Source: Eledone cirrhosa
Taxonomy: Eukaryota
NCBI GenBank assembly: GCA_964016885.1
Contig: OZ024740.1
Location: 383,532,001-383,596,000, forward strand
DNA: 64,000 nt
Direction: 5' to 3'
Part shown: positions 34,701-60,654 of the stretch, piece by piece
Numbering within the stretch: the stretch's first letter is position 1
Layout of the letters: every line of letters begins with the position of its first letter
Notes under the pieces: generated by a model
Databases searched by the model: none
What the model was told of the DNA's origin: nothing
The model's input: the letters and a program-made list of their open reading frames with translations, nothing else
Program-made: the position numbers and the translations under genes

Positions 34701-35254
34701 GTACTGTAGATTTGAACAGCGAGCGGTTATAAGAAGAGAAGGTCACAAATGGAAGATGATTCATGCAATATTGAAAGATTGAACTTTTCACTGACATATT
34801 CGCTCGCACATTCATATACATAGTCTCAAATCCAATCGCAAAAGCATGCATGCCTCAACACACACACGCGCACACGCAAATATATACAAATACATAATTA
34901 TAATTCATATATACGTATATATATATATACACACACACACACACACACACACACACACACACACACACACACACACACACACACACACACACACACACAC
35001 ACACACACACACACACACACACACATATATATATATATATATTTAAATGCATATGTATATATATATTTATATATGTGTAAACCCTGTAAATAATCTTAAT
35101 ACTTTATAAAATGCTCGGGCTAACCCAATTGCATTTAGCCGGATATTGGTCATCTTAATGGTAATTGCCTTGTATCTAGCATAGTACTTCAATGCCCTGT
35201 TTCCATACCTAAAAGTACATAGAATGCTTCATCCAACGCATAAAGTACTCTCGC

Positions 35255-35400
35255 TACGATCAATGAGACAGGATAAGGGTGTATATAGGTGTCAGAGCCA
35301 CATGGACGAAGATTGTAGAAAACCATGCAAATGGGACATGACCCATGTAAAGGGGGACTATTAATATGTAGTCAAACATCCAATACACGATGCATAAATA
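35255..35400 (+). mobile_element. PLE RT-thumb fragment related to PLE families A/B
   Basis: Q*DRIRVYIGVRA...TWTKIVENHANGT*PM matches QRDRIRVYKGARTKWEKMVNNDINGTCPL. Confidence 0.65.
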
Positions 35401-35550
35401 CAAAGAAATATGGAAAGCTCTGACCTTATAAAGGAGATATGTCAGTTGAAACTTTATACACACACACACACACACACACATATATATATATATATATATA
35501 TATATATATATATATATATATATATATATATATATATATATATATATATA

Positions 35551-35718
35551 GGAAAAAGTATGACCCCGTTTCGACATTTCGTCCAGAAATAGCCGTCGAA
35601 ACGGCTTGAGCTCTGCCGTCGGGGTCATACTTTTTCCTATTACCCTCTCTACTACCCTAAGTATTGAGTACTCTGGTGCGTTATGGTCCACCTGGTTACT
35701 TACCACAATTCCTTCGTC
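35551..35718. mobile_element. 168-bp fold-back mini-insertion of family C termini in (TA)n
   Basis: GGAAAAAGTATGACCCC...GGGGTCATACTTTTTCC inverted repeat; same sequence as the ends of 41722-43359; TA arrays on both sides. Confidence 0.75.
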
Positions 35719-35989
35719 ATATATATATATATATATATAGGGCGGTGCCCCAGCATGGCCTCAGCCGGATGGCTGAAACAGGTAAAAGAGTAAAAGAGTA
35801 TAGGAACTTTTAGGTGTGGAACAGTGTACTGAAGTACTATGCTAGAAACAAGGCAATTACCATTAACGTGACAAACATCTGGCTAACTGCAATTGGGTTA
35901 GCCCGAGTATTTTATAAAGTATTAAGATTATTTACAGGGTTTACACATCAACACGGTTAAGTGTTACTTCTACTCCACCATGCAGTTGT

Positions 35990-58800: not shown

Positions 58801-59601
58801 TCTATACTCAGAGTTATTGTTTATATTACTACTACCGTTATTATTGTTGTTGTTGTTGTTTACTTTTGCATTCCAAAGTATTTTTGTGAAAGACTTTTCC
58901 AGCTCCGTTTTGCACTCAATAGGGATAATCTTTTTGTAGATGGCAAATGTTGGTGGTAGCTGCAGGATTTCTTGTTCTTGTTCACTGATTAAAGTGTTCC
59001 CATAAATATTTACTGTGTGGTCATTGGTAAATTCTTCCGGTAGTTTTACATCCGTCATACGGATATCGTTGATGTTATCTGGGCATTTTTGAGAATATTC
59101 TATTTTACTTTCTTGTAGTTTTTTCTGATTCATCCATTCTAATTTCTTATTGAAATGGCTATTGCATTCGTTTCGGGCGTATTTCGTTTCACGTCGGATG
59201 ACGCTCATGAAGTCACCCCTTTCGTTTGGTGTGGTGAGATTTTGGACATCCTTACCGTTAATGCGTTTCTGTCTGTAAAGTTCGTTGACTTTTGTGTATG
59301 ATGTTCTTTTCGTATTAACTGTTATTGTGTGTTTTAGTCGTTCAGCTTGTGTTTTGTTCAATAATAAATTATTTACTTGTTTTGATATGTTTGTTGTGTA
59401 TATTTTGGAGGAAAAACAGTGTTTTAAGAAGCGGATTTGTTCTGTTGTTATTGTAGTTTTTATATAACAGAAAACAGTGTCTTTCAATAACCTTTCAGCT
59501 TGGCACAAGCTAATGCCATAATGGCGATGAATTAGTTTTGCGAGGTTTTTGATATGAAATTGTGTTTCGAAACAAATATTGTTATACTTGGGGAGGGTCA
59601 T
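55850..59601 (-). pseudogene. PLE family B polyprotein (N-terminal domain, Asn-rich tract, RT, GIY-YIG), disrupted
   Basis: Starts MTLPKYNN; SINE inserted at 58606; premature TAA at 57912 and 56364; SMDVVSLYPSI, YSRYVDD, YIGETARSIGER. The 3' end of the ORF is approximate. Confidence 0.88.
58606..58705 (+). mobile_element. 5'-truncated octopus-type SINE inserted antisense in the PLE ORF
   Basis: CTTTGCCTTTCATCCTTCCGGGGTCGATAG...GTAGAAACA(ATT)n inside an (ATT)n tract. Confidence 0.9.
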
Positions 59602-59784
59602 ATTTGTGTAATATTGCCAGAATTATTAACAGAATACACTCACTGTTTGGTTGGTTTTCGCTTTTCGCTTCTGTGTCTTTTATATCGGTAATCTAATTTA
59701 TTCGGTCCTCAATGTTGCCATTGACTAACCAAAGGTAAAAAATAATACAGATACAATATAGACACAAACACATATATATAGTTT

Positions 59785-59826
59785 ATCAAAGTTCTTTCGT
59801 TGCACATCTGCAACATCGTCAGTGAT
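59785..59826 (-). ncRNA. Minimal type I hammerhead ribozyme (family B, 5' pLTR)
   Basis: ATCA-CTGACGA-T-GTTGCA-GATG-TGCAAC-GAAA-G(AA)CT-T-TGAT; all stems intact. Confidence 0.88.
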
Positions 59827-60654
59827 GCTATTGTTTCCTCCCGTTACATTGTAAATATATATAAAAGATTAGATAGAACAATAACTCATTTTGTCAAAGA
59901 TATAAATGTTCAAAGATCTATTTAGCCTAAATTAGTTATTGGTTAAAAATCAATAAATTATTAAAAAATAAATTATTAAAAAATATTAAAAATATTAAAT
60001 ATTCTGGAAAATTAAAAAAAATTTTCAGAAAATATTTTAAAAATATTTAAACAATATTTAAAAAATATTTGAAAAACCTTCAAAAATTTTTTTTTTAATA
60101 AGTAATTTGATTTTAAAATAAGTAATTTACAAAAAAAAAAAGTAATTTTTTGAAAAAAAGTAATTTTTTGAAAAAATAAGTAATTTTAAAATATATGAAA
60201 TAAAAAAAAAAAAATATGAAAAATGAAACATTTAAGAAGTAAGAGATAAGGATTTAAGAAGTAAAGGATAAAGAATTAAGAAACCTTAAAAAATATTAGA
60301 ATTAAATTTAAAATTAAAAATTAAAATTTAAAAGTTTAGGATCATATACGTATATAATTTAGGAGATTTTAATAAGTGAAATTATAAGAAGTGAAATTAT
60401 ATCAAACAATATATGGTTGCCCTTCAAATATTTATAATAAAATAAATATGGTTTTATAAATATAGTTTCCATTTATTTAATATCTTGGAATATCTACTCC
60501 ACTAAACTGTTGAGTGTTCTAAATCAGTTATAAGCATTTATGTTTGTCGGAATTCCAACAAATTAAATACAAATTCTACACACACACACACACACACACA
60601 CACACACACACACACACACACACACACACACACACATATATATATATATGCATG

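Follow-up and report, generated by a model that had tools for sequence, protein, structure and literature searches.

Fold-back PLE insertions in Eledone cirrhosa pair one short with one tailed 3' end: a case for two-site priming

An insertion that meets its target with an element 3' end on both sides raises the question of where the two ends come from, and of why they should differ. The DNA examined here (the window: 64,000 nucleotides of Eledone cirrhosa contig OZ024740.1, assembly GCA_964016885.1, positions 383,532,001 to 383,596,000) contains a series of such insertions in (TA)n. The first-pass annotation proposed that each of them has inverted arms, one of which always ends earlier than the other, and that both ends of a cut had primed reverse transcription at two fixed, different sites on the RNA. 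Coordinates, arms and TA boundaries were checked by self-comparison of the window and by direct reading. On this basis, six of the seven inserts listed are truncated, head-to-head copies of Penelope-like elements (PLEs) bounded by (TA)n, with one short and one tailed 3' end; target-site duplications are not readable inside (TA)n.

In family A, the short-end arm (44132..46270, minus strand, 2.1 kb) comprises part of the reverse transcriptase (RT), the GIY-YIG endonuclease (EN) and a pLTR with a hammerhead-like motif, and its outer end falls at codon 9 of the next ORF start. It meets the long-end arm (46268..47091, plus strand, 0.8 kb), which carries a 56-nt tail (47036-47091), at a centre junction of 46268-46270; the arms are 94.5% identical. 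The offset is again 56 nt in a mini fold-back at 53886..54126, where the long end is on the left, the short end on the right and filler in the centre. A family A fold-back beyond the annotated list spans 37988..41700; its short end is at 41700, and a search for its other end found none.

Family C (Hydra-type) is represented by a fold-back at 41722..43359 (long end with an 80-nt tail on the left, short end on the right, arms 93% identical) and by a mini fold-back at 35551..35718, with the short end on the left, the long end on the right and an 80-nt offset. The family H fold-back, with a Hydra-type EN, occupies 48148..49587, its long end (66-nt tail) on the left and its short end on the right. 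In family D (Hydra-type, 54761..60577) the short-end arm of ~1 kb (54761-55240 and 59860-60400) is split by a nested family B element, and the long-end arm (60418-60577, ~160 nt) has a tail of ~89 nt. The fold-back of family E, a Zn-linker PLE, runs over 52290..53733 with its short end on the left and its long end (~40-nt tail) on the right, and carries a SINE-like insert at 53442-53620. The annotation had given the offset as ~57 nt in A and ~90 nt in D; its one-of-each ends in both C inserts, +66 nt in H and ~40 nt in E all reappear in our reading.

Inverted arms are present in the six inserts but are not a property of every insertion, as had been claimed. The family B element nested in D (55265..59853, minus strand) lacks an inverted arm: it reads pLTR-ORF-pLTR in direct orientation and has a single long end, its direct repeat lying at 55265-55593 and 59518-59853 by self-comparison. 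Among 63 family A loci, moreover, no fewer than 11 consist of a single arm bounded by TA. The pair at 35073-35948, put forward as a further instance of the asymmetry, was rejected as a double-3'-end case, since its inverted arm ends inside an endonuclease gene and there is no TA junction. The minus-strand segment at 35073..35216 repeats, in inverted orientation, an internal part of the EN gene (35806-35948) of an old Hydra-like PLE and is not half of a 3'-end pair. The forward copy belongs to this old PLE fragment, which has an RT-thumb match at 35213-35356 and degenerate GIY-YIG coding sequence that continues to the ORF end at ~36222, and neither the copy nor its six distant relatives has a TA end at the position corresponding to 35948.

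Are the families independent witnesses? They had been described as six unrelated families, a description that does not hold: self-comparison aligns A with B along 2.3 kb at 70.8% identity, and C, D and H have Hydra-type motifs in common. From linker and EN motifs in the sequence, the families are assigned to two PLE groups, Hydra-type (C, D and H) and Zn-linker Neptune/Nematis-type (A, B and E). The Hydra clade as defined in PMC8557442 is marked by a CxCX5C linker, C-terminal motifs and (TA)n targets, all of which are found here: the linker and the C-terminal motifs (CxxC and CxH around a conserved E and N) occur in C (L352) and D (L385), and the C-terminal motifs only in H. A, B and E all have a CX4CxxC Zn-finger linker before the EN, in keeping with the Neptune/Nematis form CX2-5CxxC. 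The ORF has the layout of EN+ PLEs, with RT first and a GIY-YIG endonuclease at its C-terminal end, the linkage being visible for C, D and E in longer genomic copies and H providing the EN only. For A and B, the RT matches Pfam RVT_1 below the curated cut-off and Pfam returned no EN match, the GIY-YIG motif there being recognised by eye.

A and B also display another mark of EN+ PLEs, a pLTR arising from partial tandem arrangement, with a tail that equals the ORF start. Family A ends at codons 9 (short) and 28 (long) of the ORF start, as seen in read-through copies (L272 and L217), in which both end sites read AATATCG; each site thus has ATAT in common with the target. Hammerhead-like cores with stems were found in A, B and D by our own motif scan, and variant cores in C and H by eye only; an Rfam scan of 34500-64000 gave no hammerhead, and only sub-threshold, repeat-driven miRNA matches. 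Folding of the tails, performed without a shuffle control, revealed no structure common across families. MITEs and TIR DNA transposons are characterised by symmetric TIRs and a fixed interior, whereas these inserts have asymmetric ends, variable centres and RT-derived content.

Whether the pairing is peculiar to the window can be judged from genomic copies. Exact family A end motifs are similarly frequent in the genome (12,137 short, 14,001 long). Position-based counts were taken from one contig (C1), over one stretch of up to 37 Mb, and for family A from 87 of 100 listed short positions (those in the span of the long list) and 100 listed long positions. Among the matches listed, 41 of 45 head-to-head pairs within 6 kb are short+long, 3 are long+long and 1 is short+short, against 22.5 mixed pairs if the ends combined independently (p 4e-9). 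Inspection showed two of these four same-type pairs not to be single elements, and the position-based pairs include false ones that are separate elements (L201, L211, L350 and L351). Mapped two-arm fold-backs, which were anchor-selected and overlap the positional sample, are mixed in 72 of 76 cases, with 2 and 2 same-end.

Walking inward from an anchor to the next TA run, 98 family A short anchors met a long end 60 times, a short end once, another boundary 31 times and nothing 6 times; for 86 long anchors the corresponding outcomes were 46 short, 3 long, 28 other and 9 nothing, the partner being unclassifiable for 37 of 98 and 37 of 86 anchors respectively. Among the 'other' boundaries are two true short+short pairs (L237 and L247), ends that have degenerated, insertions of later date and the single-ended inserts counted above; the automatic boundary classifier is conservative and misfiles some ends, and by-eye corrections are given where made. 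The ends themselves are sharp: for long anchors, one or two offsets account for the start of TA in 130 of 140 cases in A, 78 of 92 in C and 17 of 22 in H, the A and C loci having been selected for these ends. The ends in the sampled loci are thus discrete, which answers the objection that end positions might form a continuum.

The other families behave similarly. Family C end motifs number 7,091 short and 22,942 long, a disparity that speaks against the pairing, although the short-end pattern misses known variants. Among the matches listed (39 short and 100 long positions), pairs up to 1 kb apart are mixed in 11 of 12 cases; a limit of 4 kb gives 14 of 16, and two of these turned out to be composite. 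Boundary walks led from 30 short anchors to 20 long and 2 short ends (one element), and from 32 long anchors to 18 short ends and, by eye, 1 long. Family H loci were collected with a motif that does not distinguish the two ends (32 matches): by eye, 16 are mixed and 1 is short+short, and automatic classification of all 20 loci gave 12 mixed, 3 short+short and 5 unresolved (12 of 15 resolved). Family D yielded 18 mixed pairs, 2 and 1 same-end and 8 unresolved (n=29; 18 of 21 resolved), and family E 7 mixed and 7 unresolved (n=14; 7 of 7 resolved are mixed), both samples leaning towards long-end anchors. True exceptions exist, both long+long (L191, L202, L006, L130 and L296) and short+short (L115/116 and L151, besides L237 and L247), and single-ended inserts also occur. 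The one-of-each rule reaches beyond the window, in about nine in ten sampled copies, and is not absolute. The excess of short+long over both same-end classes that had been predicted is present in five families: for A the counted coupling is solid, and the other four agree with it.

Much of the architecture has been described before. Inverted copies, one-sided tails, insertion into (TA)n, a pair of start sites in vitro and both-strand extension are all known (PMC8557442, PMC3846280 and PMC11167929). Craig et al. 2021 (PMC8557442) reported EN+ PLE inserts with an inverted, 5'-truncated copy and a one-sided tail, and suggested that the tail results from EN-mediated resolution. PMC3846280 describes a tail on one of the inverted pLTRs (Pen2a_Av and others), together with target-site duplications, and proposes self-priming. 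Those inserts resemble ours in their head-to-head arms, in a tail at one end that equals the ORF start and, for Hydra elements, in their (TA)n targets. Their tails measure 30-40 nt, whereas those here are 40-89 nt; the pairing is counted here, at about nine in ten; and the authors propose EN resolution or self-priming, in contrast to the two-site priming that we favour. The inserts are therefore further members of a known fold-back architecture, and the counted coupling is the added part. In the literature searched, which consisted mostly of papers outside subscription, no paper was found to say that PLEs prime at two sites in a coupled, one-of-each manner; the text supplements of PMC11167929 gave no matches, and its supplementary figures may show tail pairing. 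As a like architecture is found with 9-10 bp target-site duplications in PMC3846280, the self-complementarity of (TA)n, which the annotation had offered as the cause, is probably not the cause.

How, then, does one insertion come to have two different 3' ends? We infer, with good but incomplete confidence, that each end of the cut target acts as a primer, that reverse transcription starts at two fixed sites on the RNA, and that the resulting cDNAs are end-joined. The GIY-YIG endonuclease would cut both strands in (TA)n, and a dimer would present two RT active sites, each engaging one RNA site near the ORF start. Pairing of 2-4 nt between a target end and a TA-containing word at each site may help site choice; each cDNA would then be extended as far as a stall or the 5' end of the RNA, and end-joining would unite the two cDNA ends. 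The two-site twin priming of the first-pass annotation thus survives as the best reading, and the pairing fits it; its mechanistic part keeps the standing of a model, one case listed for it was wrong, and the families on which it drew are related.

The arms and their junctions bear on this reading and its competitors. Fold-back centres lack TA and are variable: at 72 family A junctions the arms overlap by -3 to +7 nt in 41 and by 10-11 nt in 3, with palindromic overlap of at least 18 nt in 12 and filler of at least 4 nt in 16. Family A pairs range from ~40 nt to 5.7 kb, with differing junctions. In 36 of the 72 the short-end arm goes further 5' by more than 15 nt (e.g. 2106 vs 92 nt) and in 16 the long-end arm does so, and some long arms are only 5-14 nt. 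Arm identity is 96.2% within pairs vs 92.8% between them (37 pairs), the partner being the best match in only 8. At subfamily-diagnostic sites the arms are discordant at 9 of 331 positions in A (29 pairs) and 7 of 207 in C (38 pairs), vs 35% and 46% disagreement between pairs; the arms are of one age and subfamily, contrary to the objection that they might differ in age, and their common variants could also stem from gene conversion between arms. Differing junctions, common subfamily variants and the fact that either arm may be the longer argue against simple fold-back, unit copying and separate insertions alike.

The strongest competitor is a sub-variant of the two-site reading itself, in which the ends prime on two separate RNAs and an asymmetric protein dimer sets site choice. 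One-of-each pairing and unequal arms would be explained equally well, strand displacement would not be needed, and a cis preference would yield the same subfamily variants in both arms. The evidence that weighs against it is that in 20 of 72 pairs the two arms stop no more than 15 nt apart on the template, vs 4.9 by permutation, an excess that remains once palindromic junctions and the main hot spot are removed (7 of 52 vs 2.2, p 0.004) and for arms longer than 280 nt (3 of 10 vs 0.4). Mosaics are also few, two discordant sites occurring in 2 of 29 A pairs and 1 of 38 C pairs. Since same-template stops exceed permutation, we prefer a single RNA that is copied twice by strand displacement to two RNAs, with the proviso that equal reach of the arms could be mimicked by later symmetric deletion of the palindrome centre; we assign two RNAs about a third of the weight of the reading as a whole, which makes them rather unlikely. 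Equal cDNA length, as expected of a dimer moving in step, showed no excess in the 72 family A pairs (4 vs 4.0).

Family A stops form a main cluster ~255-266 nt upstream of the short site, and family C stops cluster ~25 nt downstream of a TATA-like word; judged by promoter motifs, both clusters are candidate transcript starts. Hammerhead cleavage was considered as the usual 5' stop in family A and rejected, with 2 of ~75 arms at the predicted cut and 4 arms 5 nt downstream.

Priming at a single site could in principle suffice if a cDNA begun at the long site folded back and copied itself, or an antisense RNA primed itself, and the endonuclease resolved the intermediate at the short site. Both components have been suggested in print, EN-mediated tail resolution in PMC8557442 and self-priming at palindromic junctions in PMC3846280; the palindromic junctions noted above, the 20 of 72 A pairs that are near-symmetric and the presence of TA in the short sites, as in the target, are all compatible with it. 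A self-copy cannot exceed its template, yet the short-end arm is so often the longer and the long arm may be minute, nor can the copying of a cDNA begun at the short site gain a tail. A single cDNA folding back cannot give unequal arms of this kind, and hence two primings are indicated; self-copying is largely refuted for pairs with the longer short-end arm and improbable overall. Far less credible is the copying, as a whole, of a ready-made asymmetric unit, MITE or retrozyme-like, that inherits its pairing. Family C minis do cluster at 183-192 nt, but centres differ from copy to copy and, together with the spread of family A lengths, this junction diversity contradicts such copying; the heterogeneous centres of 52 family C minis, which recur in several subfamilies, imply that the units are built anew. 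Least credible of all is the view that the two arms were inserted separately, at different times, or are chimeras of the assembly. Such elements are densely packed in this genome, the false position-based pairs named earlier proved separate, and window junctions 48447 and 46270 are bridged by none of the listed contigs (Logan contigs are too short in repeats), yet no TA lies between the arms, the arms have common variants while differing by 5-7% in the window, the ends follow element biology as chimeric reads would not be expected to, and for other family H copies the joint between the arms is seen in short-read contigs and in one raw-read run.

Two-site priming invites comparison with LINE-1 twin priming, in which the second target strand primes a second cDNA and joining at microhomology produces an inversion, the second site being variable and the inverted pieces non-overlapping. 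Here, in contrast, the second site does not vary and the overlap between the arms can extend to kilobases, so the inserts are twin-priming-like rather than of the L1 form. A closer parallel is PAc, a Poseidon PLE of the green anole, which cuts and extends both strands in vitro and for which a dimer model was proposed (Frangieh et al. 2024, PMC11167929). Two internal RT start sites inside the ORF start, corresponding to tail ends, were reported there, and the likeness to our families extends to the AT-rich target. The same source states that the start site was not different between strands and not homologous to the cut DNA, which is a point against our reading; both family A sites, by contrast, carry ATAT like their target.

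PMC11167929 leaves the later integration steps unvalidated, and the earlier papers explain inverted, tailed copies otherwise. The counted one-of-each rule in two PLE groups reduces the question to one experiment in the existing in vitro system. Tentatively, and with somewhat less than even confidence, we suggest that coupled twin priming may be the normal integration step across PLE clades: a dimer on one RNA would start each RT at its own fixed TA-containing site through short telomerase-like pairing, strand displacement would carry both to the common 5' end, and joining of the cDNAs would make a templated second strand unnecessary. The counted rule also implies that this genome owes tens of thousands of its TIR-like palindromes to retrotransposons, and annotation could mistake them for MITEs.

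Several smaller features of the elements deserve mention. Micro fold-backs of 37-52 nt recur in family A (L216, L236, L241, L243, L254 and L256), a 33-nt short arm being apparently joined to 5-14 nt of the long end at a common short microhomology. Other family A inserts (L202, L217, L231, L253, L257 and L278) have extra internal inverted segments, suggesting template jumps in synthesis. Variable (CT)n runs often stand just before the TA target at E short ends (loci L319-L348), as do (AC)n runs at D long ends (L281, L285, L308 and L309), in each case prolonging the last template bases, and such runs were noted also for L154 and L177; they could represent telomerase-like stuttering at initiation, or insertion in compound microsatellites.

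The rest of the window is equally rich in repeats. The family B element (55265-59853) is near full-length, its ORF having asparagine-rich stretches as described for Adineta Pen elements in PMC3846280, and it holds a SINE-like insert at 58605-58697. The SINE-like repeat, of ~180 bp, has at least five copies (18998-19170, 23340-23527, 24596-24787, 53442-53626 and 58605-58698), two of them inside PLE arms. Another PLE at 60651-62412 retains RT and EN remnants, with a hammerhead-like motif near 60773 and a second terminal copy at 47811-48038. Between TA runs, 49844-52222 has imperfect terminal inverted repeats and broken minus-strand ORFs (50313-51280) with no Pfam match, and is likely a DNA transposon. 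The element at 54130-54675 begins and ends with a 16-nt direct repeat and contains a hammerhead-like core at 54548, and a 280-bp element at 43810-44091, again between TA runs, has an end that is also found next to family A in L031, at an end of that family. At 849-9500 and 22485-31456 lie decayed pieces of non-LTR retrotransposons with RT ORFs, arranged in tandem and duplicated within the window.
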